Shown here piece by piece: positions 41,517-63,970 of a stretch of DNA of 64,000 nucleotides. The notes under the pieces are model-generated. The model was not told the DNA's origin and searched no databases. It saw nothing but the letters and a program-made list of their open reading frames with translations. The position numbers and the translations under genes are program-made. Source of the DNA: Candidatus Latescibacterota bacterium (GTDB lineage Bacteria > Latescibacterota > UBA2968); the NCBI GenBank assembly GCA_965208125.1, contig OZ242320.1:4768001-4832000 (forward strand), written 5' to 3'. Every line of letters starts with the position of its first letter. Positions within the stretch are counted from its first letter, which is position 1.

Positions 41517-43064
41517 TCAGGCGCGTGCGACTTCAAAGGCCGTGATATTGCGAGTGTTCTTGCTGAATTCTACTGCTATAAGGTGGATCGGCTGGTCAAG
41601 GTCGCGATATTTGTCGGCATATCGCTTTTCCTGCAATTGCGCCATTGCAGCACCTTCAGACGCCATTTCGACGACTTTGAACTCGAACAGGTAAATGTTG
41701 TCATTGAAGTGAACGGCCATGTCCAGACGCCCATGGCTACTGCTGTCTTCTACCGTGATATTCAGTCCCAGTCCCGCGAAATAGGAGTAGAATACGCTGG
41801 CATAGTAGCCTTCGAAATTGGCGATGTCGTTGTTGGTGTACCATTCGTAGGGGATGCTGGCGAAGAAGGCATGGAATAAGGTCTCCAGGCCAGCGAAGTC
41901 GTTAGCTTCCAATAGCCGATACAGGCGTACGGTGTTCGCCATCTGGCGCGTCGAATCTTTTACCAGATAGCGCAACAGGCTCTCGTTGAGGCTTTGGCGC
42001 ACTTCCCGATTGGGATAGCCCAACTGATAGAGAGACTTGCCGCCGAGGTCTTCTTGCTCTGTGATGGTGAGGTAGCCTGTCTGGAACAGCAATGCCTCGG
42101 TTGCCATGTCATCGACGTCAAAGGTGGATAACAACGCGTCATCACCGATCATGTTATCCAGTTCGAGGGAACTGACGCGGCGGTTGAAGAGGGTTTCGAT
42201 GAGGAAGGTGGGCGTGCCCGTCTCGAACCAGTAGGCTCCGAACTCGCGGCTGTCAAAGAGCAGGAGGATGTCAAAAGGATTGTACACCTTTTCGTCACCC
42301 AGCCAGCTATAACCGTTGTACCAGTCGCGTATCTGATCTCTGTCCAGTCCGGGCAGTTCTGGTGCGAATATCGTGTCGAGGTCCGCATCGGTATAGCCGC
42401 AAATAGTTGAGTAGCGCGTATCCAGCGTGATGTCGGTCAGGTTGTTGAGACCAGAGAAGATGCTCGCTTTGGAGAATTTGCTGACGCCCGTGAGAAAGGT
42501 GAAGTGAACGTGTGCGTCGCAGCCTTTAATGGTGGCATAAAAGCCGTGCAAGAAGTCGCGATTGGCGCGTGCAATCTCCGGGACTTCGAGTGCGTCTAAA
42601 ATCGGCTTGTCGTTTTCATCAATCAGAACGACAACGCGCTGACCGGCACGACCGTGAAGGATTTTCAAAATAGACGCAAAGCGTCCGGAGGCTGTGGTGT
42701 GCTCGGAGACAATTTTCGCGCGACGTTCTATGGCCGCGAGTTGTTCCATCACATTCGCCTGCAGGTAGCCCACCTCTTTGAAATTGCCGCTGCCAAAGCT
42801 GAGGCGCAGAACAGGATAGCGCACTTGCCAATCCCAGTGGTCGTGAATGTACAACCCCTCAAACAGTGGCTCGTTGCCCTCAAACAGTTCTTTCAAGGTG
42901 TCCAGAAACAGGCTTTTGCCAAAGCGACGTGGTCGCGATAGGAAATAGTGCGTGCCCTCGTTAAGCAATACTCGGATATACTTTGTCTTATCGACATAGT
43001 AGCAATTCTGATCCCGAATTTTGCGGAAGGTCTGAATGCCAATGGGTAGTCTGCGTCTGGTCAT
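41517..43064 (-). CDS. AAA-ATPase-like protein with C-terminal PD-(D/E)XK nuclease domain
   Basis: LPIGIQTF, YYVDKT, RPRRFGKSL Walker A, VLIDENDKP, GRLDM...LFEFK..AMAQL. Confidence 0.92.
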   Translation of the reverse strand: MTRRRLPIGIQTFRKIRDQNCYYVDKTKYIRVLLNEGTHYFLSRPRRFGKSLFLDTLKELFEGNEPLFEGLYIHDHWDWQVRYPVLRLSFGSGNFKEVGYLQANVMEQLAAIERRAKIVSEHTTASGRFASILKILHGRAGQRVVVLIDENDKPILDALEVPEIARANRDFLHGFYATIKGCDAHVHFTFLTGVSKFSKASIFSGLNNLTDITLDTRYSTICGYTDADLDTIFAPELPGLDRDQIRDWYNGYSWLGDEKVYNPFDILLLFDSREFGAYWFETGTPTFLIETLFNRRVSSLELDNMIGDDALLSTFDVDDMATEALLFQTGYLTITEQEDLGGKSLYQLGYPNREVRQSLNESLLRYLVKDSTRQMANTVRLYRLLEANDFAGLETLFHAFFASIPYEWYTNNDIANFEGYYASVFYSYFAGLGLNITVEDSSSHGRLDMAVHFNDNIYLFEFKVVEMASEGAAMAQLQEKRYADKYRDLDQPIHLIAVEFSKNTRNITAFEVARA

Positions 43065-47938: not shown

Positions 47939-50900
47939 ATGACACTCAAATATTTCCTTTTGATGATCGCCCTGACGTTGCTTGTGGGTGCAGGTCAGGC
48001 ATCTGCACAGGGTCCGAGTGTGTCGCTCAGGCATGTTCCCGATGCAGGTGGCACCGAAGGCATCATTTCTGGACCGGGCACGACCTTTACGGTCAGGGTT
48101 TCCCAAACAGGTGTTAACGATATTCCTGGGATTGCCAATGCGGCTCGCCTGAATATTGATTTTGCATTTGATACATCTGTTGTAAATCTTACTACTCCGA
48201 TTGGCTTTCGCCGAGCCGATAATGCAACTGGTACTACGCTTACCCTGATCGCTTTTCCGAGACCTACCCTAACAGTGCCAGACTCCGTTGATCTCACTTT
48301 TACGACGAGTGCTGATTATGATGGTTCTGAGTTTACCATTGAAATTACGGGGGTCAGTAGTACAGGGATTGCAATTCCTCTATCAGAAAAGCTCACCTTT
48401 AATTCCGTCCGTCCGCTTCCTCTCGATCCCCAGCTTCATCTGGATACACAGATTGAAAGTCCTGCACAGAACAACAGTGTGCTGACCTTCACGGACAAGA
48501 GGCCGGGTGATACCCTCCAAATTCAGCTTTTTGTGCCAAATGTAGCAGGTCAGGACATCCAGGCTTTCACACTCGAACTGGCCTTACAGGGCAAGACATT
48601 TGCCGATTTTATCAGTAGCATATCCGGCAGTGATTGGACAGGTGGCGACCTATTCCCTGGAACATCTGCATCTAACCTCCCAACGCTGAGTGGGCTGTTT
48701 CTCAATGCTGCGCCTGTACCTATGACGGGGTATCTGGGTCAAATAGACCTTGAGGTGATCGGTGTGCTGAGCGACCAGGACAAGTTGCGCGTCACCAGTG
48801 CTTTCCTCGCTGTTGCGGGTGGGGCACTACAATCTATGGATGTGTCCGATGTGGAGGTTTCCTTTGCGCCAATCTGTCCTGGAGATTTTGACGACAATGG
48901 GATCGTCAACATGGCAGATTTTATGCTCTTTGAGGGGGTGTTTGGCACGCGGTCTTCGGATGCTGCTTACAATGCACTGATGGACATGGACAGCAGTGGG
49001 GGTATAGATGTGGCAGATTTTATGCTCTTTGTCGATGTATTCGACACTACCTGTAAGCAACAACCTCCGGGTGATGGCGGTGGTGGACAAACGGGAGTTT
49101 CTATTCCGGATGCGAACCTTCGTGCTGTGATTGAGGACAGTCTGAGTAAGGCGAGCGGTGCGCCGATCACGCAGGCAGAAATGGCGAGCTTGAGGCGCCT
49201 TGAAGCACCGGACTCGGACATCGGCGATTTGATCGGGCTTGAATTTGCAATTGGTCTGACAGATCTGGGTCTTTACAGCAACAGCATCTCGGACCTCTCA
49301 CCTCTATCTAACTTGACCAACTTGACATGGCTGCGGCTTTCCAGCAACAGCATCTCGGACCTCTCACCTCTATCTAACTTGACCAACCTGACATGGCTGA
49401 GTGTTCACGATAACGATTTATCGGGTGAACTTCCGTCTCCTTTGGGCAACTTGACCAACTTGCGACATCTGGAGGTTGGTTGGAACCGGCTTTCAGGTGA
49501 GCTCCCATCGTGGCTGGGCAACTTCACCAACTTGGAAGTGCTGATACTTAGTAACAACCAGTTTTCGGGTTCTCTTCCGTCGTGGTTGGGCAACCTCACC
49601 AACATGCGATTGCTGTATCTTTCCGATAATAATTTCTCGGGCGCACTCCCTTTGTCTTTGGTCAATCTCAGGTTGGAATCGCTATTTCTGGATAACACGC
49701 AGTTGTGCGTGCCGACGGATGCCGCATTCCAGACGTGGCTGGAAGGCATCGAGAACAAGCGTGGCGTTGTCAACTGCGCGGATGAGAGTAGTGGTAGCGG
49801 AACGCCAAAGATGTACTGGACAGACCATGTGACGGACAAGATCCAGCGGGCGAACCTGGACGGCAGCGGGGTGGAAGACCTCGTCACCGGATTGAGCAGT
49901 CCAACCGACCTGGACCTGGGCAACGGCGGATTTTACTGGACGGACTACGGGACAGGCAAGATTCAGCGGGCGAACCTGGACGGGTCGGGAGTCGAGGACC
50001 TCATCACTTCCGGGTTGCGCGTCCCATCCGGTATTGCCCTGGATATGGGCAACGGCAAGATGTACTGGACGGATGTAGGGACGGATAAGATCCAGCGGGC
50101 GAACCTGGACGGCAGCGGAGTGGAAGACCTCGTTACGGGATTAGATCACCCACACCGCATTGCCCTGGATATGGGCAACGGCAAGATGTACTGGACGGAC
50201 GGGGTGACGGATAAGATTCAGCGGGCGAACCTGGACGGCAGCGGAGTGGAAGACCTCGTCGTCTCCGGTTTAAACGACCCAGTTGGCATTGCCCTAGATC
50301 TGGATAACAGCAAGATGTACTGGACGGATCTGAGGGCCCTTAAGATCCAGCGGGCGAACCTGGACGGCAGCGGGGTGGAAGACCTCGTTACGGGATTGGA
50401 GGGTTATCCAGACGGCATCGCTCTGGACTTGGGCAACGGTAAGATGTACTGGACGACCGCGTTGACGGGCAAGATCCAGCGGGCGAACCTGGACGGCAGC
50501 GGGGTGGAAGACCTCGTTACGGGATTGGGCAATCCACACGGCATTGTGTTGAATATTTCAGGGGATAGTGGCAGTACGTCGGTTACCATCCCTGATGCGA
50601 ACCTGCGCGCTGTTATTGAGGACAAGCTCGGCAAGGCGCGTGGTGCGTTGATCACCCCATCCGAGATGGCGAGCTTGACGAGCCTTGATGTGCCGCCGAA
50701 CTCGAACATCAGCGATTTGACCGGGCTTGAGTTTGCAACTGGTCTGAACAGTTTGGATCTTGGCATCAACAGCATCTCAGATGTGTCCGCACTGTCTAAC
50801 CTTACTAACCTGACAGTGCTGTCTATGAACAACAACAGCATCTTAGATGTGTCTGCCCTGTCTGGTCTGACTAACCTGACAGTGCTGTCTATGAACAACA

Positions 50901-52774
50901 ACAGCATCTTAGATGTGTCTGCCCTATCTAACCTTACTAACCTGACAAATCTGTATCTTGGCGGCAACAGAATCTCGGACGTGTCTGCTCTGTCAGGACT
51001 GACCAACCTGACATGGCTGGAGCTTGGATCCAACAGCATCTCAGATGTGTCTGTCTTGCCTGGCCTGACCAATCTGACATGGCTAAGTCTTGGCCAAAAC
51101 AGCATCTCGGATGTATCGTCACTGTCTTCCTTGACCAACCTGAGAGGGCTGTTTCTTGACGGCAACCAGTTGACGGGCAGTATCCCCTCTTGGCTGGGTA
51201 GCCTCACCAACCTGCAAAGGCTGGGGCTATCTGACAACGCCGGTCTTTCCGGCCTCTTACCAGGTTCGTTCACCAGTCTCGCCAATCTCCAGTATCTGTA
51301 TCTTGCAGATACGGGGTTGTGTGCGCCAACAGATGCGGCGTTCCAGGCATGGCTGGAAGGCATCGAGAACAAGAGCGGCGTTGTCAACTGCGGCGGTGGC
51401 CTGTCAGGTCCTGACTTCGCCAAACATGTGATCGATGATGTGGATCGTCTTCTCAACGTCGAAGACCTCTACGGGCTGGATCTCGACGCCGATGGCGATC
51501 TGGACATCCTCACGGGCGGGGCAAATGCGGACGTGCATTGGCACGAGAACGACGGCGGCGTCTTCACCCAGAGGTTGATATTTAGCGCGGGTAGCGGCAG
51601 GCGCGTGTACCCGGCCGACGTCGATGGGGATGGCGATGCCGACGTGCTCTCCGCCGCCTGGAGCGACGACAAGATCGCGTGGCACGAGAACGACGGCAGC
51701 GGCGTCTTCGTGGAGCGCGTGATCTCGACGAACGCGGACGGGGCCCAATCGGTGCATGCGGCGGACCTGGACGGGGACGGCGATGCCGACGTGCTCTCCG
51801 CCTCCAGTTACGACGACAAGATCGCGTGGTATGAGAACGACGGCGGCGTCTTCGTGGAGCGCGTGATCTCGACCGACGCCGACCGGGCCGAGTGGGTGCA
51901 CGCCGCCGATGTCGACGGCGATGGCGATGCCGACGTGCTGTACGTCGCTTGGGAGGACCACAAGATCGCGTGGTATGAGAACGACGGCGGCGGCGTCTTC
52001 GTGGAGCGCGTGATCTCGACCGATTTCGTCGGCCCCTATTTCGTGCATGCGGCGGATCTGGACGGGGACGGGGACGCCGACGTGCTCTCCGCCTCCGCCG
52101 TGAACCGGGACGCGGAGATCGCGTGGTACGAGAACGACGGCGGCGTGTTCGAGAAGCGGGTCATCTCGACGAATACGAGCGCCGAAGTGCATACGGCGGA
52201 CCTGGACGGGGACGGCGATGCCGACGTGCTCTTCGCCTCCAGTTACGACGACAAGATCGCGTGGTATGAGAACGACGGCGGCGGCGTCTTCGTGGAGCGC
52301 GTGGTCTCAACGGTCCTGTCACTTCGGGGAGTAGGCGCGGCGGACCTAGATGGAGACGGCGACCTGGATGTGCTGTCAGCATCGGGTGGCGACGAGCCGC
52401 TCGCCTGGCACGAGAACCTGTCGAACCACGGCGACGACCACGGGGACGCGCCTGACGCCGCAACGCTGGCGACGGCGCTGCCAGCGTTCCTGCACGGCGT
52501 GCTGGAGTCGGCGGGGGACCGCGACGTCTTCCGCGTGGCGACCGGAAGCGGCACGCTCCGCGTGTACTCGAACGGACCGACCAACACGTACGGAACGCTG
52601 CTGGACGCCAACGGCGCAGTGATGGCCGGGAACGACGATTCCGGCGCGGGGTTGAACTTCGAGATCGAGACGGCGGTCGGGGCGGGGGTCCACTACGTCG
52701 AGGTCAGCAGCTACGCCGATGCAACGACGGGACCCTACACTGTGTCCATCGAGTTCGTTGCCAACCGGCCATGA
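47939..52774 (+). CDS. Secreted protein: cohesin-like domains, EF-hand/dockerin, LRR, 6x YWTD, LRR, 7x FG-GAP, PPC
   Basis: GGGAGG RBS; signal peptide AGQASA; CPGDFDDNGIVNMADF; ADLDGDGDADVL..WYENDG x7; GDRDVFRV. Confidence 0.87.
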   Translation: MTLKYFLLMIALTLLVGAGQASAQGPSVSLRHVPDAGGTEGIISGPGTTFTVRVSQTGVNDIPGIANAARLNIDFAFDTSVVNLTTPIGFRRADNATGTTLTLIAFPRPTLTVPDSVDLTFTTSADYDGSEFTIEITGVSSTGIAIPLSEKLTFNSVRPLPLDPQLHLDTQIESPAQNNSVLTFTDKRPGDTLQIQLFVPNVAGQDIQAFTLELALQGKTFADFISSISGSDWTGGDLFPGTSASNLPTLSGLFLNAAPVPMTGYLGQIDLEVIGVLSDQDKLRVTSAFLAVAGGALQSMDVSDVEVSFAPICPGDFDDNGIVNMADFMLFEGVFGTRSSDAAYNALMDMDSSGGIDVADFMLFVDVFDTTCKQQPPGDGGGGQTGVSIPDANLRAVIEDSLSKASGAPITQAEMASLRRLEAPDSDIGDLIGLEFAIGLTDLGLYSNSISDLSPLSNLTNLTWLRLSSNSISDLSPLSNLTNLTWLSVHDNDLSGELPSPLGNLTNLRHLEVGWNRLSGELPSWLGNFTNLEVLILSNNQFSGSLPSWLGNLTNMRLLYLSDNNFSGALPLSLVNLRLESLFLDNTQLCVPTDAAFQTWLEGIENKRGVVNCADESSGSGTPKMYWTDHVTDKIQRANLDGSGVEDLVTGLSSPTDLDLGNGGFYWTDYGTGKIQRANLDGSGVEDLITSGLRVPSGIALDMGNGKMYWTDVGTDKIQRANLDGSGVEDLVTGLDHPHRIALDMGNGKMYWTDGVTDKIQRANLDGSGVEDLVVSGLNDPVGIALDLDNSKMYWTDLRALKIQRANLDGSGVEDLVTGLEGYPDGIALDLGNGKMYWTTALTGKIQRANLDGSGVEDLVTGLGNPHGIVLNISGDSGSTSVTIPDANLRAVIEDKLGKARGALITPSEMASLTSLDVPPNSNISDLTGLEFATGLNSLDLGINSISDVSALSNLTNLTVLSMNNNSILDVSALSGLTNLTVLSMNNNSILDVSALSNLTNLTNLYLGGNRISDVSALSGLTNLTWLELGSNSISDVSVLPGLTNLTWLSLGQNSISDVSSLSSLTNLRGLFLDGNQLTGSIPSWLGSLTNLQRLGLSDNAGLSGLLPGSFTSLANLQYLYLADTGLCAPTDAAFQAWLEGIENKSGVVNCGGGLSGPDFAKHVIDDVDRLLNVEDLYGLDLDADGDLDILTGGANADVHWHENDGGVFTQRLIFSAGSGRRVYPADVDGDGDADVLSAAWSDDKIAWHENDGSGVFVERVISTNADGAQSVHAADLDGDGDADVLSASSYDDKIAWYENDGGVFVERVISTDADRAEWVHAADVDGDGDADVLYVAWEDHKIAWYENDGGGVFVERVISTDFVGPYFVHAADLDGDGDADVLSASAVNRDAEIAWYENDGGVFEKRVISTNTSAEVHTADLDGDGDADVLFASSYDDKIAWYENDGGGVFVERVVSTVLSLRGVGAADLDGDGDLDVLSASGGDEPLAWHENLSNHGDDHGDAPDAATLATALPAFLHGVLESAGDRDVFRVATGSGTLRVYSNGPTNTYGTLLDANGAVMAGNDDSGAGLNFEIETAVGAGVHYVEVSSYADATTGPYTVSIEFVANRP

Positions 52775-53399: not shown

Positions 53400-53582
53400 A
53401 GGCCGCGGCAGGAAGTACTGCAAATTCTACCAACAGATGTATTGTAGGGTAGTGCCCGCGTGCCCGATAGCGCTGTATTTCTATCCTGTAGGGAGGAAGT
53501 AGAAAATGATACACAGGCCATCAGATCGGGATAACTCCGACAATGCTGATAAATGTCGATTTTTTTATGGAGGAAAACGGCT

Positions 53583-56500
53583 ATGTGGGGTTGTTTGCTT
53601 AAAGGATTCCGGTTTATTGTCGTCCTTGGGTTGCTGGCGTTAGTAGGCCAGGTGTTTACTGGTCCCAACGCCAGCGTCGTTCCGTTGTCGTCGTGTCCCG
53701 GTGATTTCGATGGCAATGGGCGTGTGGATCTTGCTGACTTTCTGGCTTTTGCGGGTGCGTTCGGCGCGCGGTCTGGGGAGGCCAAATATAACGCGGATAT
53801 GGATATGGATGGCAGCGGTGCCATAGATGTGTCGGATTTCCTGGCCTTTGCCGGAGTATTCGGGACCACCTGCCAGGACCCTCCTGACGGTTCGGTCAGC
53901 GGGGACCGGGAGGCGCTTGTGGCGTTGTACAATGCGACAGATGGGCCGAACTGGGTCAATAACGGGAACTGGCTGACAGAGGCACCACTGGGGGACTGGT
54001 ATGGGGTGGACACGGACGAGTCGGGGCGAGTCGTTCGTCTTGTGCTCGCAGGCCACTTTGATGACGAAGTCCGAACCTACGTGTCGTTTGGCCTCCTGGG
54101 CTGGATCCCGCCAGAACTCGGGAATCTAACGCACCTGGAGAAGCTTGATCTACACATCAACGGTCTGGTAGGCACGATCCCGGCGGAGCTCGGGAATCTA
54201 ACGCACCTGAAGGAGCTTTCCCTCGGCTGGAACAGGTTGTCAGGTGTAATACCGCCGAAGCTTGGTGGCCTCACAAACCTGGAAAGGCTTCACATGCGAT
54301 CGAACACTCTGACGGGACCGATTCCGCCAGAGTTGAGGGGCCTCGCTAACCTGAAGCATCTGGATCTATCACAAAACGAACTAACGGGCGGTATTCCCAC
54401 GTCGTTTAGCGGGTTTGTAGAGCTTGAGAGGTTGCAGCTAGGCGGAAACAACTTTACGGGACCGATTCCGCTGGAACTTGCCAACCTTAGCAAGTTGTCA
54501 TCTCTATCTCTCTACGACAACGAGTTGACAGGACCGATTCCGCCGGAACTTGCCAACATCGAGAGGTTGTGGTTCCTGTCGCTGCACAGCAACGGCCTGA
54601 CGGGACCGATTCCACCGGAGCTCGGTAACCTTGGTAATCTGGAGAGCCTGAATTTGGGCAATAACAACCTGACGGGACCGATTCCACCGGAGCTTGGCAA
54701 CCTTGGTAATCTGGAGAGCCTGAATTTGAGCAATAACAACCTGATCGGCCAGGTTCCGCCAGAGCTGGGCAGGCTCACCCAACTGCAGGACCTTGTAATG
54801 TCTGACAACCTGCTGATGGGAGCGCTTCCGTTGAACTTTGTGGAACTCACGAACTTGCAAAACCTTGGCTGCCGAAGGACTGAAGGCGTTTGCGTCCCGG
54901 CGACGGATGAGTTCAGAGAGTGGGCGCGGCAGGTGGAGTCCCGAGGGAACACGCAATGGCCAGTGGACATCCCGTTTTGCGACGAGATTGATGCGGGTGT
55001 CTTGGAGGATCTCTATCAAGCCGCGAACGGCTCTATCTGGACGCGGTCCGATGGCTGGCTCAAGGACGAGAACCTGAGTCGGTGGCACGGGGTGCAGACC
55101 GATCCGATTGGGCGGGTCTCCGGTCTCGATCTGAGCGGCAACGGGCTGTCGGGGTATGTTCCGGAAGTCCTGGGGCAACTGGCGAGCCTGACGAGCTTGA
55201 GGATCGGGGACAACGCGTTGAGTGGCCGGCTGCCCCTGTCGCTGTCTGGCGTGTCGCTGGAAGAGTTCGACTACGGAGGCACGTCTCTGTGTGTGGCAGA
55301 CGATGCCGGATTCCAGAAATGGCTGAACGGCATCCCGCGCCACAGCGGGACGGGGGTGCAGTGTCCTCCTCTCACGGAACGTGAGATTCTCGAATGGTTG
55401 TATCGGAATACGGACGGTGCGAACTGGAACGAGAGCACGGGTTGGCTGACCGAAGTCCCCTTGGCTCAGTGGCATGGCGTGGAGACCGATGCTGCTGGCC
55501 GAGTCGTCGGGCTGCGACTTCCGAACAATGGCCTGACCGGCTCGCTTCCGGTGGAACTCGGAGAGTTATCGCAACTCAGGCAGTTGGATCTTGTCGCCAA
55601 CGGTTTGTCGGGTTCGATCCCGCCGGAAATGGGTGGCCTGGACCGTCTTGAGTGGCTCGCCCTTGCCAGTAATCAACTCAGTGGAAACATTCCTTCGAAA
55701 CTCGGCAAGCTTTCGGAACTAAGGTATCTAAGTCTTAGGCGGAACCGGCTTTCGGGTTCGATTCCGCCGGCGTTGGGTAACCTGGGCAGTCTTGTGTCAC
55801 TCGACCTCGGGTCGAATCAATTCAGCGGCGAGATCCCGCGGGATCTCGCTAGGCTTGTCAACGTGACCCGGTTGGGGCTCGGCAGGAACTTTCTTTCGGG
55901 TCCGGTTCCACCGGAACTGGGTAATCTGATCCGTCTAAGGGTGCTCGCCCTTGAAGAGAATCAACTCAGCGGGGACATCCCTTCGGAACTCGGCAACCTC
56001 GGCGCAATCGAGTCCATCAGGCTTGCCGATAACGAGTTGACCGGCCGCATTCCGCCACAGCTTGGTGCATTGGACCGTCTTTCGGTTTTAGACCTGTCGG
56101 GCAACCAGTTGACCGGTCCGATTCCTGCGGAACTTGGCGGTCTTTCCGGTCTTTCGGAGTTCCAGTTGTTCGGCAACGAGTTGTCGGGATTGATTCCCGT
56201 GGAATTGGGTGATCTGGCCAACCTGGCCACGCTGAATCTGGGCGATAATGAACTCACGGGACCACTGCCCACTGAACTCGGGTACGCCGCAAAGCTGGAG
56301 GGTCTCGACGTGCGGTCCAACGCGCTGACCGGTCCAGTGCCGCCCGAATTTGGCAATCTCACGCTGCTGAAGTCGCTGATTCTCGCTGACAACCCTGGTC
56401 TGTCCGGGCCGCTACCTCCCGGTATTGCGTCATTGGGGCAACTCGAACAGTTCATGGCGGGGGGGACCGCACTGTGTCGTCCGGCGGATTCCGAGTTTAC

Positions 56501-58040
56501 CGCATGGTTCCGTGCCATTGGTGAACGCCGTCTGGTGCGTTGCGAGGGCGGGGCCGCCGTGTATCTCACTCAGGCCGTCCAGTCGTGGGACGATCCGGTG
56601 CCGCTGCTGGCGGGAGAGCCAGCGTTGCTGCGTGTCTTCGTGACGGCGCTACATGGTGGTACGGCCACAATGCCCGATGTCCGGGCTACGTTCTTTGTGG
56701 ATGGCGTGGAGCGGCACACCGTCCATATCGCCGCAGGTACACAGTCTATCCCCCAGGAGGTCTCGGAAGGGGATCTTGCGCTGTCGGCTAACGCCGAGAT
56801 TCCGGCATCGCTCGTGGTGCCTGGCCTGGAGATGGTGATCGAAGTTGATCCAGAAGGTGCTCTGGACCCGGCGCTTGGAGTGACGAAACGGATTCCGGAG
56901 GAAGGCCGAACAGCCGTTGATGTGCGGCGCATGCCGTCCTTGCACTTGACACTGATCCCGTTTCTTTGGGAGGCCGAACCGGACTTGTCACTCATCGAGA
57001 CCGTCTCCGCAATGGCGGCGGATCCGGATGGTCACGAGTTGCTGCGCAATGTGCGGAGACTCCTGCCAATTGCGGGAATCAATGTCATGGCGCGCGAGCC
57101 TGTCACCACATCGACTCAGGATAGTCGCAGAAGGCTGTCGCAGGTTGAAGCCATTCGCATCATGGAAAACGGCTTGGGATACTGGATGGGCGTATCGAGT
57201 TTCAGGCGTGCGCCCGGGTTCCGTACGGTTCCATCAGCCGCCGGGCGTGCCTTCGTCGGCGGACGGGCGAGCATGGCGTTGGCAAACCCTAAGACCATCG
57301 CCCATGAACTGGGACACAACCTCTCGCTCAGGCACGCACCCTGTGGTGGTGCTGGGGGCCTGGACCCCTGGTTCCCGCATCATCAGGGGAGCATTGGGGT
57401 TTGGGGATACGATTTTGACCGGGAGTCATTGGTGCCGCCGGACGCCGCTGACATCATGTCCTATTGCTCGGGAGTCAACTGGATCAGCGATTTCTTTTTT
57501 AACAAGGCGCTCAACCACCGCCTCGCCAACGAAGGTGCCACGACGACCGCATTGACCGCGGAAGCGGATCCCACACGCTGCCTCCTATTCTGGGGCGGAC
57601 GGGATGAAGACGGCGTCCCGTACCTGGATCCCGCCTTCATCGTGGAAGCCACACCGTCTGTTCCAGCTTCAGGCGGAGAGTACACCATTGAGGGAGCGGC
57701 TGCTGACGGGATGCCCGTCTTTTCGTTCAGCTTTGATATGCCTGTCACTGCAGACGCTGCGGGCGAAGAGACGAGCTTCGTGTTCGCGTTGCCTGTCCAG
57801 CGCGAATGGGTAGGAAATCTGGCGAGTATCACGCTTTCTGGACCTGGTGGCTTGGCCACCCTGGACGAGAGCACGGACCGTCCAATGGCTATCCTGCGCG
57901 ATCAGCGAACGGGTCAGGTACGTGGCTTTCTGTCGGACCTTCCTTCAGGGGAAGCGGCTCAGGCGGCTGCGAAAAGCGCGGCTGCGGCGAAACCAGGAGT
58001 GGAAGTGCTCTTCAGCCGGGGTATCTCGGATCTACGGTAA
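53583..58040 (+). CDS. Secreted EF-hand/dockerin, three LRR blocks, M66-like zinc metalloprotease
   Basis: GGAGG RBS; CPGDFDGNGRVDLADF; LTGPIPPELGNL LRRs; AHELGHNLSLRHAPCG, DIMSYC. Confidence 0.88.
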   Translation: MWGCLLKGFRFIVVLGLLALVGQVFTGPNASVVPLSSCPGDFDGNGRVDLADFLAFAGAFGARSGEAKYNADMDMDGSGAIDVSDFLAFAGVFGTTCQDPPDGSVSGDREALVALYNATDGPNWVNNGNWLTEAPLGDWYGVDTDESGRVVRLVLAGHFDDEVRTYVSFGLLGWIPPELGNLTHLEKLDLHINGLVGTIPAELGNLTHLKELSLGWNRLSGVIPPKLGGLTNLERLHMRSNTLTGPIPPELRGLANLKHLDLSQNELTGGIPTSFSGFVELERLQLGGNNFTGPIPLELANLSKLSSLSLYDNELTGPIPPELANIERLWFLSLHSNGLTGPIPPELGNLGNLESLNLGNNNLTGPIPPELGNLGNLESLNLSNNNLIGQVPPELGRLTQLQDLVMSDNLLMGALPLNFVELTNLQNLGCRRTEGVCVPATDEFREWARQVESRGNTQWPVDIPFCDEIDAGVLEDLYQAANGSIWTRSDGWLKDENLSRWHGVQTDPIGRVSGLDLSGNGLSGYVPEVLGQLASLTSLRIGDNALSGRLPLSLSGVSLEEFDYGGTSLCVADDAGFQKWLNGIPRHSGTGVQCPPLTEREILEWLYRNTDGANWNESTGWLTEVPLAQWHGVETDAAGRVVGLRLPNNGLTGSLPVELGELSQLRQLDLVANGLSGSIPPEMGGLDRLEWLALASNQLSGNIPSKLGKLSELRYLSLRRNRLSGSIPPALGNLGSLVSLDLGSNQFSGEIPRDLARLVNVTRLGLGRNFLSGPVPPELGNLIRLRVLALEENQLSGDIPSELGNLGAIESIRLADNELTGRIPPQLGALDRLSVLDLSGNQLTGPIPAELGGLSGLSEFQLFGNELSGLIPVELGDLANLATLNLGDNELTGPLPTELGYAAKLEGLDVRSNALTGPVPPEFGNLTLLKSLILADNPGLSGPLPPGIASLGQLEQFMAGGTALCRPADSEFTAWFRAIGERRLVRCEGGAAVYLTQAVQSWDDPVPLLAGEPALLRVFVTALHGGTATMPDVRATFFVDGVERHTVHIAAGTQSIPQEVSEGDLALSANAEIPASLVVPGLEMVIEVDPEGALDPALGVTKRIPEEGRTAVDVRRMPSLHLTLIPFLWEAEPDLSLIETVSAMAADPDGHELLRNVRRLLPIAGINVMAREPVTTSTQDSRRRLSQVEAIRIMENGLGYWMGVSSFRRAPGFRTVPSAAGRAFVGGRASMALANPKTIAHELGHNLSLRHAPCGGAGGLDPWFPHHQGSIGVWGYDFDRESLVPPDAADIMSYCSGVNWISDFFFNKALNHRLANEGATTTALTAEADPTRCLLFWGGRDEDGVPYLDPAFIVEATPSVPASGGEYTIEGAAADGMPVFSFSFDMPVTADAAGEETSFVFALPVQREWVGNLASITLSGPGGLATLDESTDRPMAILRDQRTGQVRGFLSDLPSGEAAQAAAKSAAAAKPGVEVLFSRGISDLR

Positions 58041-58137
58041 AGAACAAACATTGCCACGATCGGTGGCGGAGGCGCGGTCGTCCCAGGGAACGCCATAAGG
58101 ATGGGATCAGTCAAAGTCTGCCAGATAGGGTGGCGGT

Positions 58138-58579
58138 TCATGCGCACAGTGTTTGCCATAAGGCGGGTTGAGTCTTTCTCCAGATAGCGCAACAGGCTGC
58201 GATTGAGGCTCTGGCGCACTTCCCGATTGGGATAACCCAACCGATAGAGGGATGCGCCGCCGAGGTTCTCTTTCTCTGTAATGGTGAGGTAGCCGGTCTG
58301 GAATAGCAATGCCTTTGTTGCCATGTCATCGACGTCAAAGGTGGATAACAACTCGTCGCCGCCGATCATGTTATCCAATTCGAGGGAACTGACGCGGCGA
58401 TTGAACAGGGTTTCGATGAGGAAGGTGGGTGTGCCGGTCTCGAACCAGTATGTGCCAAAGGTGCGCTTGTCAAAGAGCAGGAGGATGTCAAAGGGGTTGT
58501 ACACCTTTTCGTCACCAAGCCAGCTATAGCCATTGTACCAGTCGCGGATGTCTTCTCTGTCCAGGCCGGGTAGTTCTGG
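58138..58579 (-). pseudogene. Internal fragment of the AAA-PD(D/E)XK gene fused to its own 3' end
   Basis: PELPGLDR...LMANTV joined at GCGC to the terminal bases. Confidence 0.88.
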
Positions 58580-58582
58580 ATT

Positions 58583-58609
58583 GTAGGGGTAGTACCCCTG
58601 TGCCTGTCC
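58583..58609 (+). repeat. GTAG-type REP-like element (related copies at 47873, 53444 and inverted at 15803)
   Basis: GTAGGGGTAGTACCCCTGTGCCTGTCC and variants. Confidence 0.55.
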
Positions 58610-58648
58610 GCTAACGCTGTATTCTATCCTATAGGGAGGGATTGAAAA

Positions 58649-58795
58649 ATGACACGCAAGAATTTCCTTTTGATGCTCGCCTTGACGTTGCTTGTGTGTG
58701 CAAGTCAGGTGTCTGCACAGGGTCCAAGTGTGTCGCTCAGGCATGTTCCCGATGCAGGTGGCACCGAAGGCATCGTTATTTTCACCAATATATAG
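58649..58795 (+). pseudogene. Orphan copy of the 47939 leader (48 aa)
   Basis: MTRKNFLLMLALTLLVCASQVSAQGPSVSLRHVPDAGGTEGI, then divergence and stop. Confidence 0.8.
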
Positions 58796-58806
58796 GGATA
58801 AATACC

Positions 58807-61800
58807 ATGCGCAAATATCTATTGTCCATCCCGATGATTCTGCTTTTGCTCGTCGGGGCTGCCTTTGCACAAACGGTTAATTTTTCTCTAACGGGCCTCG
58901 ACGGCAAGACATATAGTGCCTCTGACTATCGCGGCAAAGTGCTCATACTTGCTATCATCGGATATAGCTGACCATCCTGTAGAGCCGCGGGTCCGCGACT
59001 CGAAAGTTTATGGCAAGATTATAAATCAAACCCCGATGTTGCCATGCTCGGTCTTGATGCCTGGAATGGCAGTCCGTCACAGGTTGAGGCTTTTCGCACC
59101 GCTTCGAGTGTCACTTTTCCCATGCTTCTAAATGCTGGTAGTTCTGCCCCGGCCTCGTATGAGAATCTCGTTGTTGTTGGTCCCGATGGAACTGTGGCAT
59201 TGCCTGCCACGGGTAATCTGAGTTCAAGTTCTGTTACTAGCGTGAAAGCCAAGGTTAATGAACTGTTGACGCAACTACCGCTTCCTCTCGATCCCCAGCT
59301 TCATCTGGATACACAGATTGAAAGTCCTGCACAGAACAACAGTGTGCTGATCTTCACGGACAAGAGACCGGGTGATACCCTCCAAATTCAGCTTTTTGTG
59401 CCAAATGCAGCAGGGCAAAACATCCAGGCTTTCACACTCGAACTGGCCTTACAGGGCAAGACATTTACCGATTTTATCAGCAGCATATCCGGCAGTGATT
59501 GGACAGGTGGCGACCTATTCCCTGGAACATCTGCATCTAACCTCCCAACGCTGAGTGGGTTGTTTCTCAATGCTGCACCTGTGCCTATGACGGGGTATCT
59601 GGGTCAAATAGACCTTGAGGTGATCGGTGTGCTGAGCGACGAAGACAAGTTGCGCGTCACCAGTGCTTTCCTCGCTGTTGCGGGTGGGACACTACAATCT
59701 ATGGATGTGTCCGATGCGGAGGTTTCCTTTGCGCCAATCTGTCCTGGAGATTTTGACGACAATGGGATCGTCAACATGGCAGATTTTATGCTCTTTGAGG
59801 GGGTGTTTGGCACGCGGTCTTCGGATGCTGCTTACAATGCACTGATGGACATGGACAGCAGTGGGGGTATAGATGTGGCAGATTTTATGCTCTTTGTCGA
59901 TGTATTCGACACTACCTGTAAGCAACAACCTCCGGGTGATGGCGGTGGTGGACAAACGGGAGTTTCTATTCCGGATGCGAACCTTCGTGCTGTGATTGAG
60001 GACAGTCTGAGTAAGGCGAGCGGTGCGCCGATCACGCAGGCAGAGATGGCGACTCTGACCCACCTTGATGCTCGAAATAAGATGATTAGCAATTTGACGG
60101 GACTCGAGTTCGCAACCAATTTGGAAACTTTGTACCTTTCCGGCAACAATATCAAGGAATTGTCCTCGGACGTGTTTTCTCGCCTTGGGAAACTGCAAAC
60201 ACTGGATTTAAGTAGCAACCGGGAACTGATGGTGTTGCCACCCAATGTATTCGCTGGTCTCCACAAGCTTAGCTCTCTATCTTTCAGTTATACGCAGATA
60301 GAAGCGTTGCCCGCCAACGTGTTTGCCGGGCTCAACAACCTCGAACACTTATCCTGTTATTCGAATACATCACTCACGTCGTTGCCTCCGGGTATATTCA
60401 ACGGTCTCGCAAATCTCAGACAGCTGGTCCTGGAGACGAATGGATTGACATCATTGCCTTCCGGCGCATTCGATGATCTCACCAATCTGCAATCTTTGTG
60501 GTTGAGAGGGAACAGACTGACGTCGTTGCCTATGGGTGTATTCGACGGGCTCATAAACCTCGAAGATTTGAGATTGAAGAGCAATCTGCTGACTGAGCTG
60601 CCTGGACACGTGTTTTCAGATCTCAACAACCTCAAAGAGCTGAGTCTGGGAAATAATCAATTGAGCGAATTGCCCGACAACTTGTTTGTCGGCCTCAGTA
60701 GTGTTAAAAACCTCTCTTTGGACGGGAATCCGGGTGCTCCGTTTCCGCTCACCGTGGAACTCAAACGTACGGATACGACGAACGAGTTGGCGCCCGGTCC
60801 CGCCGACTTCGCGGTCAGACTAGCGCCTGGAACCCCCTTCGACGTCGATATATTGTTGTTCGTGCACAACGGCACGGCATCCGCTGCTTCGCTGACGATC
60901 GACGCAGGCGACGCCACCAGCAGTGCCTCCGCAAGTGTCACGGCCTCTGCGGGCGCGTCAGGCGCGACCGTGATCAACCTGGGGCCGGTGCCCCGGGTGC
61001 CGGGTGGATTCAGCGGCCTCGAAGTGCGTGCGGGCGCTCCGCTTGTACTGTTCTCGAAATCCGACAACCGGCAACCCGTTGCAGCAGGAAACATACCGTC
61101 CCATGTCCTTCAGGTTGGCAGCCACCAGGCCATATTGGATCTGGGAGATTACTTCTCGGATGAGGACGGCGATCAACTGTCGTTTTCAGTCGTGTCAAAC
61201 GACATTAGTGTTGTCGAGCACGGGGTGGATGACGGATCGATGACGTTGATTCCAATCAACGTGGGCGATGTCTCGGTTGGCGTCACCGCGACGGATTCTG
61301 AAGGATTCAGTGTTTCGCAGAGCATGTTCGTTACAGTGCTGCCCGCGCCGGACCCCGGTTCGTTCGACATTGACCTTGTCTTTGTTACTCCGGTCTCGGA
61401 AGAGACGCGCCTGGCCGCGCAACGGCAGGTCGAACGATGGACCGAAGTCATTAAGGGCGACTTGCCGGAGGTATCCATATCAGGCGACTTCGTCGACTGC
61501 GGGACGTGGATGAGGGGCGCCGATCATCGTTTCTTTGGGAAGGTGGACGACCTTGTGGTCTTCGTGCAAATCGCTACCATTAGTGGAGGTCAAGGACTCG
61601 GAGGTCCGTGCGGATTGCGCGATGGATCCTTCCTACCATACACGGGAGGTCTCGTATTGGACGTGGAGTCGGCGGGCACGCCTGACGGCGGAGCGCAAAC
61701 AATTCTTCATGAGATAGGGCATGTGATAGGAATCGGGACTATATGGGACAAGCTCGGATTTCTGCAAGGAAGTGGCGGGGACGACCCCCATTTCAGCGGC

Positions 61801-62163
61801 CCGCTGGCCATAGCGGCGTTTGACGCAGCGGGAGGCGAGAACTACAGAGGAAGTAAGGTGCCCATTTCAAGCGACCTGGGACATTGGGCTGGGGATGCCT
61901 TTGGTTGGGGGTACCCGCGAGAACTCATGATGGTAAGTGGCGGTACTGTTCTCAGTGCCATTACGATCCAGTCCCTGGCCGATCTTGGCTACGTCGTCGA
62001 CGTCACGAAAGCGGATCCGTTCCGGCTACCAGATGCCGGGGAGACGACCGCAAGCAAGACCGTCATCCTTCGTGACGATATCCCGAGAGGGCCAATGTCC
62101 ATCGTCAATGAAAACGGGCGCGTTCTGCGTGTCGTGGACGACGGAAACAGTTCAGATTATTGA
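58807..62163 (+). CDS. Probable secreted selenoprotein: redoxin (UxxC), cohesin-like, EF-hand, LRR, Ig-like, leishmanolysin/M8-like metalloprotease
   Basis: The ORFs ending at 58971 and starting at 59044 are in one frame with a single TGA: SDYRGKVLILAIIGYS-U-PSCRAAGPRLESLWQDY; LHEIGHVIGIG, HW and ELM motifs. Confidence 0.85.
58982..59001 (+). promoter_or_regulatory. Candidate bacterial SECIS hairpin
   Basis: GAG-c-CGCG-GGTC-CGCG-a-CTC; the GGUC loop starts 18 nt after the TGA. Confidence 0.7.
59278..60052 (+). repeat. ~775-bp module shared with 48413-49188
   Basis: Near-identical DNA encoding PLPLDPQL...QAEMA in two otherwise different genes. Confidence 0.92.
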
Positions 62164-62473
62164 ACGGCGACTTACGCTGCCTTGATCTTGGCTGGGACCG
62201 GCCTGATGTATATGATTCCGGATTGTGACGCTATTATACAACGAAGGAAGTACCAGTGTTTATGAGACGCGAATTCCGGTTTATCGTCATCGTAGAGAAC
62301 TGGCAGGAATTTATATTTCAGGAGGTGAGCTATGTGCCTATGAGGTTGAAAGACCAGCATCTTGCTTCATTGCGCTATCTGTATTATCTTGAGATTGCTG
62401 AGGCTGGATTTTGATTGCAAAATGCTACGACGGCTGTGGAAGCCTACGGTCAAGACCAGAATATGGACTGTTT

Positions 62474-63970
62474 ATGCCAATTGGATGTGTATATCTCATA
62501 GGTGCCGGGCCGGGCGATCCGGAATTGATAACTGTGAAGGGGCTGCGCCTGATTCGGGAAGCCGATGTGATCTTGTATGACGGGTTGGCGAATCCCGAAT
62601 TTTTGAAGGAAGCGCGGCGGGAATGCGAGTGTATCAATGTGGAAAAGCGCCCGGGTTTTCAGCGCGTGCAGCAAGATGAGATCAATCAGATGATGGTCGA
62701 TTTCGCCCAAAAAGGGTTGATGGTGGTGCGATTAAAGGGAGGCGATCCCATTGTTTTTGGGCGTGGTGGAGAGGAAGCTGAAGTTCTGAGAGACCACGAG
62801 ATTCCGTTTGAGATTGTGCCGGGTATTACCAGTGCAATAGCGGCACCCGCTTATGCCGGTATTCCCGTGACCCATCGCGGTATATCCCCACATGTGACGA
62901 TTGTAACGGGAACAACGGCTTCGCTTGAAGGCGATGGGGAAGTTGATTGGGAAGGATTGGCAAAAGTGGGCGGTACGCTCCTGATTTTGATGGGTACGCA
63001 AAAACGCAGTGAAATTGCTCGCCGTCTCATCGCGGGAGGGCGCCCATCAGAAACCCCCGTTGCTGCCGTACAGTGGGGGTCGTTGCCATTGCAACGGACT
63101 GTGAGGACGACGTTGGGGGAGATGGGCGCGGTCGAAATGACCAATCCCGCGGTCATTGTCGTTGGAAAGGTCGCGGCAATGGATCTGGATTGGTTTGCGT
63201 CTAAGCCCCTGTTCGGCAAAACGATTGCTGTGACGCGGGCGCGCACGCAGGCGAGTGAATTGGTACACATGTTGCGGACGTTGGGCGCACAAGTGCTGGA
63301 AGTTCCGACGATTGCATTTGCGGAACCTCAAAATTGGTGCGATGTGGATTGTGCTCTTGCAGATATTCATTCTTATGATTGGCTTGTTCTGACAAGTGCA
63401 AACGGAACCGATCGCTTTTTTGAGCGTCTGTTTAAACAAGACCGCGATGTACGCGCATTAGGTAAAATAAAAATAGCGACTATTGGCGCGGCAACGTCAG
63501 CCCGGGTGCGCGAGTGGCATCTCAATGTAGATCTCGAAGCGGTGAATCGCACGTCAGAAGGCTTGCTCGCGGCTTTTGACGCGGATCTTTCCGGACAGCA
63601 TTTTCTGCTGCCTTGTCCTGAAAAATCTCGGGATGTGCTTGCCAATGGAATCCGAGAGCGCGGTGGTTTGGCTCGTGAAATAGTTGTTTACAAAACGGTT
63701 ACGTCCGAGCGTTTGCCCGAAGAATTTTTGCATCTTTTTAAAAAAGATGCCATTGATCTGATCGCGTTTACGAGTTCTTCTACGGTTTTAAATCTGGTGA
63801 GTTTATTAAAAAAGACGCGGCAAAATTGGGAATACTTGCCAGCGGCGTGTATCGGTCCCATCACAGCCCAAACCGCAGTTGCACAGGGATTTGATGTGGT
63901 CGTGGAACTTGAAGAGACATCGGTATCTATTTCTGGTCTTGTAAAGGCGATTGCAGCGTATTTTAGCTAA
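62474..63970 (+). CDS. cobA: Uroporphyrinogen-III C-methyltransferase/synthase fusion (CobA-HemD)
   Basis: VYLIGAGPGDPELIT, VVRLKGGDP, VPGITSA; then PLFGKTIAVTR, LTSANG, FTSSSTV, ACIGPITA. Confidence 0.95.
   Translation: MPIGCVYLIGAGPGDPELITVKGLRLIREADVILYDGLANPEFLKEARRECECINVEKRPGFQRVQQDEINQMMVDFAQKGLMVVRLKGGDPIVFGRGGEEAEVLRDHEIPFEIVPGITSAIAAPAYAGIPVTHRGISPHVTIVTGTTASLEGDGEVDWEGLAKVGGTLLILMGTQKRSEIARRLIAGGRPSETPVAAVQWGSLPLQRTVRTTLGEMGAVEMTNPAVIVVGKVAAMDLDWFASKPLFGKTIAVTRARTQASELVHMLRTLGAQVLEVPTIAFAEPQNWCDVDCALADIHSYDWLVLTSANGTDRFFERLFKQDRDVRALGKIKIATIGAATSARVREWHLNVDLEAVNRTSEGLLAAFDADLSGQHFLLPCPEKSRDVLANGIRERGGLAREIVVYKTVTSERLPEEFLHLFKKDAIDLIAFTSSSTVLNLVSLLKKTRQNWEYLPAACIGPITAQTAVAQGFDVVVELEETSVSISGLVKAIAAYFS

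Follow-up and report, generated by a model that had tools for sequence, protein, structure and literature searches.

A 64,000-nucleotide stretch of the genome of Candidatus Latescibacterota bacterium (assembly GCA_965208125.1, contig OZ242320.1, positions 4,768,001 to 4,832,000 of the forward strand; hereafter the window, whose own numbering is used below unless genome positions are stated) probably contains a gene for an exported selenoprotein of composite origin, in which selenocysteine (Sec, U) would occupy the UxxC site of a redoxin module similar to ResA and TlpA, and in which a 503-bp fragment bearing this module would have been grafted onto a gene for a leucine-rich repeat (LRR) protein with a predicted protease at its C-terminus. 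The reading frame extends from the ATG at 58807-58809 to the TGA at 62161-62163, and its sole internal TGA, at 58969-58971, corresponds to residue 55 within the context GKVLILAIIGYS-U-PSC-RAAGP, reading GYS-U-PSC-RAAGP around this residue. We are highly confident that this TGA encodes Sec, and, judging from its homologues, the selenoprotein appears to be real and of a known kind. The fusion itself is best described, from alignments of its parent genes, as a chimera with two breakpoints that occurs in this genome alone, and not as a conserved architecture.

Probable Selenocysteine at the Internal TGA

The redoxin domain of the frame lies across the internal TGA. Pfam AhpC-TSA matches residues 24-120 with 45.1 bits (cut-off 26) and Pfam Redoxin reaches 31.8 bits (cut-off 26.6), both domains spanning the TGA, and the redoxin-domain profile matched the solved structures 3kcm (3.6e-12), Bacillus subtilis ResA (1e-9), and TlpA (4.6e-4). 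In the profile alignment, the U/C column falls where solved thioredoxin-fold proteins have the first Cys of their CPPC motif. A preliminary description of the window, made from its letters alone, had placed the TGA at the first Cys of a CxxC motif within a single frame, and the letters, the Pfam span, and the profile column all agree with this placement. It is worth noting that the domain scores far under the NCBIfam equivalog cut-offs for ResA (39.7 vs. 170 bits), StoA (26.8 vs. 210 bits), and TlpA (20.8 vs. 230 bits). Therefore, although predicted to be ResA/TlpA-like in its mode of action, it does not appear to be an orthologue of any of the three.

Homologues of the redoxin head were sought in six frames in 31 related genomes of the same Candidatus Latescibacterota family, 30 of which gave a match. 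Among the best 60 matches (E ≤ 2.7e-13), one in-frame TGA is present in 57, no TGA in two, and a TAA in one. Reading of 42 loci gave 39 distinct sequences, in which the U55 column was occupied by TGA in 37 and by TGT in the other two, which contradicts a private nonsense mutation, the outcome that the preliminary description had named as fatal to its proposal. The residues 3' of the TGA are conserved to the same degree as those 5' of it, and the head shares 60-83% identity with its orthologues of the same genus. A TGA-x-x-C pattern occurs 25 times in L011-L030; in 22 of these hits the pattern belongs to a redoxin homologue in which the TGA position is unchanged, and the other three arose by chance. 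One homologue of 38% identity (G006:C34:81941-82327) has an in-frame TAA for the TGA and an open frame of 152 aa, and may be a pseudogene.

The called proteins of this family consistently lack the part of the head that precedes the TGA. All 44 called relatives (299-2000 aa, E ≤ 1e-8, in a set of 5.8 billion proteins) cover 43-58% of the head, namely the post-TGA part only, and those with a name are annotated as choice-of-anchor D domain-containing protein (database proteins P0048-P0090 and P0251-P0258). The window product has met the same fate, in keeping with the expectation in the preliminary description that gene callers would split the gene: its database entry (P0002) comprises 1039 aa from Met79 at position 59044. 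A large exported selenoprotein family is cut at the TGA in public sets, so that its redox function and the selenium demand of these symbionts are hidden from annotation.

The machinery for Sec insertion, which the preliminary description had proposed to look for, is encoded in the genome, a single contig of 5.75 Mb. It comprises selA (5.4e-148), an adjoining 648-aa frame with a SelB wing domain, a tRNA-SeC, and selD (6.6e-109), the last with one in-frame TGA of its own. SelA is also found in 30 of the 31 genomes of the bacterial family, the exception being 91% complete and divided among 430 contigs. In this genome, eight of the 26 AhpC-TSA-type matches contain one in-frame TGA (genome positions 2419514, 5058321, 3783051, 1006863, 4826876, 862084, 1038770, and 640709), as does an FdhA-like gene at genome position 2700863. 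This sponge-associated lineage may therefore have a large selenoproteome. A compact selenium locus is present at genome positions 1004059-1007982 (L008), where a TlpA-like redoxin with the motif SW-U-GC is followed by selD and then by tRNA-Sec.

The Hairpin Downstream of the UGA

The bacterial selenocysteine insertion sequence (SECIS) is a stem-loop just 3' of the UGA with a G-bearing apical loop. In the window, the hairpin GAGcCGCG-GGUC-CGCGaCUC is present at the place given in the preliminary description, with the loop beginning 18 nt past the UGA. Its likeness to the apical part of the SECIS of Escherichia coli fdhF, which the same description had pointed out, amounts to a resemblance, as there is no Rfam hit and covariation is weak. 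It is plausible that the hairpin is the SECIS, with weak statistical support; taken alone, the window hairpin is no better than chance.

Several comparisons among homologues are consistent with a functional element. When compared with synonymous recodings of themselves, the homologues fold more stably on average (mean -10.05 vs. -7.36 kcal/mol; p ≤ 0.05 for 11 of the 37), and some of them have compensatory stem changes, such as pair 5, where C-G in the window corresponds to G-C in L025. The Gly codon of the loop is mostly GGU, although GGT makes up 24% of Gly codons genome-wide. GGU-type loops are also found in the FdhA-like gene of this genome, 18 nt past the UGA, and in its selD, 20 nt past the UGA, and the hairpin is lost in the Cys homologue L070.

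Other results weigh against the assignment. Folding of the window sequence gave z = -0.56 over 81 nt (50 of 200 shuffles as stable) and z = -0.81 over 42 nt (40 of 200), and equally stable folds are formed by 31% of the synonymous recodings of this peptide (p = 0.31); part of the hairpin comes for free because the stretch encoding A-A-G-P is GC-rich and self-complementary. Across the 37 TGA-bearing homologues, the fixed 8-pair register is 67.9% paired and the covariation score is 0.187 vs. 0.161 in shuffles, a value reached by 23 of 500 shuffles, with such column-wise pair tests being blunted by the hairpin apex, which moves 1-2 nt between paralog groups. RNAalifold, when applied to the 37 homologues, returned a different 4-pair helix without compensatory pairs and did not recover the hairpin. 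In addition, an Rfam scan of 58900-59100 at E ≤ 10 yielded six chance-level matches (best E = 0.32), none of them to a SECIS family.

Usual Context of the Sec-Redoxin Head

The Sec-redoxin module seems normally to head a family of Latescibacterota surface proteins with a quite different body. When 23 relatives were read through the TGA and scanned with Pfam, all 23 comprised a redoxin head, 1 to 14 immunoglobulin (Ig)-like repeats of the HYDIN/VesB/DUF1573 type, and a dockerin/EF-hand-like tail, and none of the 23 contained an LRR or a protease. The Ig-like repeats of the orthologues also match the NCBIfam models choice-of-anchor D and OS_HP2 (seleno)protein, the latter at 5.1e-51 in six stretches. 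The redoxin paralog in the same genome has 14 repeats and is 1691 aa long from its first ATG, and comparison between species, with 1 to 14 repeats per gene, indicates that the repeat arrays probably expand and contract quickly. No choice-of-anchor-D/DUF1573 Ig-like repeats were detected in the window protein by the Pfam scan. Thus, the 1118-aa Sec fusion proposed in the preliminary description stands as a frame with a signal-like N-terminus, but not as a conserved architecture, given its absence from all 23 relatives.

In a same-genus genome, the usual redoxin-Ig locus has its syntenic counterpart at 857-862 kb of this genome and not in the window. Between the window and the redoxin-Ig loci of two genomes of the same genus, no synteny was found beyond the redoxin piece. 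Some same-genus genomes (G012, G020; L031, L033) have tandem pairs of redoxin-Ig genes, in which a 334-aa frame is paired with one of 848 or 428 aa. About 60 nt 5' of the redoxin ATG are conserved across species (L037, L041, L043), with a similar in-frame read-through, and only the last ~30 nt of them are held by the window chimera; this sequence may be a conserved leader or promoter.

Breakpoints and Parent Genes

The two breakpoints of the chimera can be placed by comparison with both parents. In a three-way alignment, the sequence is of LRR type up to 58774, of redoxin type from ~58775 to 59277, and of LRR type again from 59278, with a CCGC microhomology at the right junction. Searches by blastn gave nearly the same limits, with the redoxin paralog of the same genome covering 58772-59279 and the gene of the LRR paralog P0003 covering 58583-58777 and 59278-59450. 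At the protein level, homology to the redoxin orthologues ends at residue 157 (ELLTQLP), and the residues from 158 on are 77-97% identical to a large LRR protein family. The N-terminus of the LRR paralogs (P0003 and P0004), M-x-x-K-x-FLLM-x-ALTLLV...AQGPSVSLRHVPDAGGTEG, has been left behind as a stub open reading frame (ORF) at 58649-58795, and the TAG ending this stub is supplied by the inserted piece. In all, the insert replaces 345-348 nt of the LRR gene, and the same part is a Pfam Cohesin domain in the paralogs P0020 and P0101.

Relatives of the recipient gene retain this original N-terminus. An intact paralog, P0003, is located in the same window at 47939-52774, and the metagenomic protein P0013 combines a cohesin N-terminus with the same LRR-Ig-protease body (69% identity over 668 aa) and has no redoxin. 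Among 101 hits in the set of 5.8 billion proteins, the only one covering the junction is the window's own P0002, and the next-best hit, at 87% coverage, has a cohesin N-terminus and no redoxin. As candidates for a second chimera, P0068 and comparable LRR hits were rejected, since they match the dockerin and LRR parts only.

The redoxin piece is without sign of decay. Its ratio of nonsynonymous to synonymous substitution rates (dN/dS) against the orthologues is 0.32-0.52, with 0.28-0.41 for pairs of orthologues. Some considerations count against reading too much into the intact gene: pairwise dN/dS is a weak test for the branch of the window gene itself, a single genome has the chimera, and the open frame is no sign of selection because an in-frame join has a prior of ~1 in 3. 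As to the usefulness of the redoxin-LRR-protease combination, we lean toward a domain swap that is recent and either neutral or mildly useful.

Authenticity of the Chimeric DNA

It is very likely that the chimera is real DNA. A Logan contig of sequencing run X1 matches 58923-59307 with 0 differences, taking in the TGA and the right junction, and an X1 contig across the left junction is exact over 58727-58843. These contigs also have features that weigh on the other side. The first reaches only 30 letters beyond 59278 and is one letter short of the bridging rule of 31 letters at the right junction, an end that is expected near 59278 because the k-mer graph meets the paralog there. The contig across the left junction has 12 paralog-type differences at 58656-58726 and may be a mixed graph path. 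In addition, run X1, in which 72% of the sampled words occur, probably represents the source sample and hence is not independent. In runs X3 and X4, contigs join 58774 to 59278 with 348 other letters between, as in the intact paralog; no contig was found over 58806-59247 in runs X2, X3, and X4, from which no inference is drawn.

The k-mer depth at 58500-58567 is 232-470 in runs X1, X3, and X4 vs. 2-9 around it, and a multi-copy or widely shared element is therefore located beside the breakpoint. Small shares of the stretch were found in runs labelled sponge metagenome, and no RNA run was among those listed as containing it.

Proposed Origin and Expression

The chimera might have arisen when a 503-bp fragment of a Sec-redoxin gene took the place of the first cohesin domain in a cohesin-dockerin-LRR paralog ending in a leishmanolysin-like protease, with joining by illegitimate recombination at the CCGC microhomology of the right junction. 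This fragment would consist of the ribosome site, the ATG, the signal peptide, the UGA, the hairpin, and codons 1-157. Because a bacterial SECIS sits in the coding sequence just past the UGA, the fragment would have brought all needed cis signals with it.

Transcription may proceed from the promoter of the LRR gene; a promoter scan found no sigma-70-like site on the forward strand 5' of 58649 or 58807, and four sites in 58000-62500 vs. 3.1 expected. The 48-codon stub would be translated, ending 11 nt ahead of the new ATG, and the chimera would then be initiated behind AGGGA. UGA55 would be read by SelB with Sec-tRNA at the hairpin, and the 1118-aa product would be exported. The predicted mature protein would comprise a redoxin head cycling between selenenylsulfide and selenol-thiol forms, followed by cohesin-like, dockerin-like, LRR, Ig, and M8-like parts. 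As UGA55 precedes the protease in one frame, a full-length product that includes the protease would require Sec insertion, in line with the selenium dependence of protease expression proposed in the preliminary description.

Alternative Explanations

If the TGA were a true stop or a nonsense mutation, the locus would yield a 54-aa peptide and a separate 1039-aa protein from Met79, or would be a pseudogene. This explanation has on its side the gene callers, which place a stop at the TGA and a start at Met79, and the insignificance of the hairpin on its own, and yet we consider it extremely improbable: it would split a Pfam domain and leave the Met79-start product without a signal peptide and with half the fold, and it is at odds with the TGA column, where just two of the 39 distinct homologues depart from TGA and both have Cys, with the equal conservation on both sides of the codon, and with the full Sec machinery encoded in the genome. 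It is also very unlikely that the chimera is an assembly artefact, with the Sec-redoxin gene and the LRR gene separate in the cell. Such an error is conceivable between two parents from multi-copy families with near-identical stretches, especially as no single contig bridges the right junction under the 31-letter rule and paralog letters occur further left in the contig across the left junction. However, an artefact needs two switch points 503 bp apart within a single-contig assembly, and the exact matches to 58727-58843 and 58923-59307 in the independent k-mer assembly of X1 mean that words over both junctions are in the reads. Moreover, no full-length source gene of this redoxin type was found by blastn elsewhere in the genome, the best other copy being 77.7% identical.

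There are also readings that accept both the Sec residue and the graft, and differ in what is made of them. The fusion might be a selected design, as implied by the preliminary description, i.e., a secreted LRR/leishmanolysin-like protease with its synthesis gated by selenium and its activity tuned by the Sec-redoxin. The 1118 open codons with an in-frame junction, the ribosome site, signal peptide, and hairpin that came with the fragment, and the lack of excess amino-acid changes in the redoxin piece would all fit such a design, as would the dockerin-like module found in both parent families, which may share a surface context. We nevertheless regard it as unlikely, as the junction occurs in no second genome or database protein (the one hit of 101 at 100% coverage being the window's own), LRR and protease are absent from all 23 relatives, P0068 shares only the dockerin and LRR parts, and an in-frame join arises by chance in 1 of 3 cases. 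A broader proposal, that the Sec-redoxin head is a portable cassette that Latescibacterota graft onto varied surface bodies, and that the chimera is made and used as a secreted, selenium-requiring protease with an N-terminal selenenylsulfide switch for sensing or repairing redox at the sponge host interface, is likewise rather unlikely. The preferred reading therefore remains that of a Sec-containing, ResA/TlpA-like exported module carried by a 503-bp fragment into an LRR/protease gene.

Domains Downstream of the Redoxin Head and Neighboring Genes

The features of the chimeric gene are listed in Table 1. The preliminary description had named cohesin-like, EF-hand, LRR, and M8-like protease domains in the body of the protein. 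The LRR array is clear and the M8-like domain is recovered by way of its family profile, whereas the EF-hand/dockerin assignment is near threshold and the cohesin-like domain is a language-model lead only. For residues 158-310, no Pfam match was obtained at E ≤ 5, and among named ESM Atlas clusters the closest are those of cohesin (score 0.93, 180 shared features). The dockerin-like pair scores below the cut-offs of both Pfam Dockerin_1 (21.3 vs. 22.9 bits) and NCBIfam dockerin_GC (20.4 vs. 29 bits). Big_9 is matched by six of 23 aligned relatives of the tail.

At E ≤ 0.001, 4366 relatives of the tail were found. A family profile built from a 23-row alignment matches leishmanolysin (1LML) at 3.6e-8 over the HExxH motif, the distal His, and the Met-turn, and Pfam Peptidase_M8 is found in 17 of the 23 aligned relatives (best 2.5e-11). 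The window's own tail matches no Pfam family, including PF01457, at E ≤ 0.01, with only Reprolysin_3 at E = 0.11, and a single-sequence search of the PDB with the tail returned only pappalysin at E of about 1.

Table 1. Features of the chimeric gene and its surroundings in window positions.
Feature	Position	Strand	Description
Leftover leader of recipient LRR gene	58649..58795	+	48-codon ORF: signal peptide plus ~21 residues; TAG at 58793-58795
Redoxin-derived insert, 503 nt	58775..59277	+	~30 nt of 5' leader with ribosome site, plus codons 1-157
Putative Shine-Dalgarno-like AGGGA	58794..58798	+	8 nt 5' of the ATG; AAGGA in orthologues; predicted from sequence
Chimeric ORF	58807..62163	+	1118 residues, U at 55, terminal TGA included
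Putative signal-peptide-like N-terminus	58807..58869	+	Residues 1-21: MRK, hydrophobic core, AFA before QT; read by eye, kept in orthologues
Predicted thioredoxin-fold redoxin domain, AhpC-TSA/Redoxin, ResA/TlpA-like	58876..59166	+	Pfam, NCBIfam, profile search
TGA as selenocysteine U55 (very likely)	58969..58971	+	First position of U-P-S-C; conservation, profile alignment
TGT, Cys58	58978..58980	+	Resolving Cys of UxxC; column invariant in head alignment
Candidate bacterial SECIS hairpin	58982..59001	+	8-pair stem with one C.A mismatch; GGUC loop at 58990-58993
Internal ATG, Met79	59044..59046	+	Gene-caller start of the 1039-aa product P0002
Second cohesin-like domain of LRR family, kept in chimera	59278..59736	+	Residues 158-310; 77-97% identical to paralogs
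Dockerin/EF-hand-like calcium-loop pair	59743..59892	+	Residues 313-362; below-threshold matches
Leucine-rich repeat array	60085..60726	+	Pfam LRR_8 1.1e-63, seven stretches; LRR_4, LRR_5, LRR_14
Ig-like (Big_9-like) domain before protease	61066..61320	+	Pfam Big_9 E = 0.0044, 18.3 bits (cut-off 23.6)
Leishmanolysin-like (M8-like) zinc metalloprotease domain	61357..62034	+	HEIGH 61708-61722; His of GHW 61882-61884; ELM 61921-61929, Met 61927-61929

The chimeric gene lies at the end of a cluster of paralogous exported LRR genes that occupies 33401-58040 and 58649-62163 of the window, with the other members at 33401-35011, 35456-40396, 47939-52774, and 53553-58040. P0003 consists of two cohesin-like domains, a dockerin-like domain, LRR, YWTD/LDL-receptor-B repeats, and FG-GAP, and the neighbor at 53553-58040, located 5' of the stub, combines LRR with an M66-like C-terminal domain. 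The N-terminal modules of the clustered genes are 88-97% identical in DNA while their bodies differ, which suggests frequent gene conversion or module shuffling among them. Directly 5' of the stub, a truncated ORF on the reverse strand (57959-58744) resembles a 515-aa ORF at 41517-43064, also on the reverse strand, and by eye appears to be of the AAA-ATPase/PD-(D/E)XK type.

Comparison With Known Systems

Our searches of the literature found no Sec-redoxin fused to an LRR protein or metalloprotease, no large Sec-redoxin architectures, and no Latescibacteria selenoproteins, and supplements could list such cases; one paper (PMC8318568) names the phylum solely as a bin. No new decoding mechanism or enzyme class is shown by the present case.

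The leishmanolysin-like tail can be compared with leishmanolysin itself (GP63, M8, 1LML), as the HExxH motif, the distal His, and the Met-turn align with the tail-family profile. It differs in being bacterial and in forming the C-terminal module of a protein in which LRR and Ig domains precede it. Cohesin-dockerin assemblies of the cellulosome type are resembled in the domain replaced by the redoxin, which hits Pfam Cohesin in the paralogs, and in the dockerin-like calcium loops of both parents. However, no dockerin score in the window reaches its cut-off, and the retained cohesin-like domain is a language-model lead.

For the redoxin head, the best solved relatives are B. subtilis ResA (1st9), Bradyrhizobium TlpA (1jfu), and StoA (3erw), extracytoplasmic thiol-disulfide oxidoreductases that are also exported or membrane-anchored redoxins and in which the CxxC column coincides with that of the window domain. 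In contrast to them, the window domain would have Sec for Cys, and nothing was seen that links it to cytochrome maturation. The OS_HP2/DUF1573 model (NF041425), matched by the Ig-like repeats of the orthologues, describes a family for which a UGC motif is given in PMC13188914. Here, however, Sec is predicted in the redoxin head and not in the repeats, and the repeats have been lost from the window protein.

The closest known systems are selenoproteins of the Prx-like, Redoxin, and TlpA type. Table 1 of PMC13188914 includes a Prx-like thiol:disulfide oxidoreductase (PF00578, UxxC) and a Redoxin family (PF08534, UxxC) among its known or predicted Sec families, and thiol-disulfide isomerase-like, UGC-type TlpA, and DUF1573 Sec families are listed in the same source; the Prx-like UxxC family is also described in PMC1088965 and PMC1976440. 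With these the window protein shares PF00578 and PF08534, a UxxC motif with Sec for the first Cys, Cys homologues, and a hairpin past the UGA. The difference is one of architecture, as the entries in PMC13188914 and PMC1088965 are given by domain only, whereas in Latescibacterota the Sec-redoxin would be the N-terminal module of exported proteins of up to 1691 aa. The chimera would be a natural case in which a fragment of ~500 bp moved all cis signals for Sec to an unrelated gene, with a bearing on the origins of selenoproteins and on the engineering of Sec tags.

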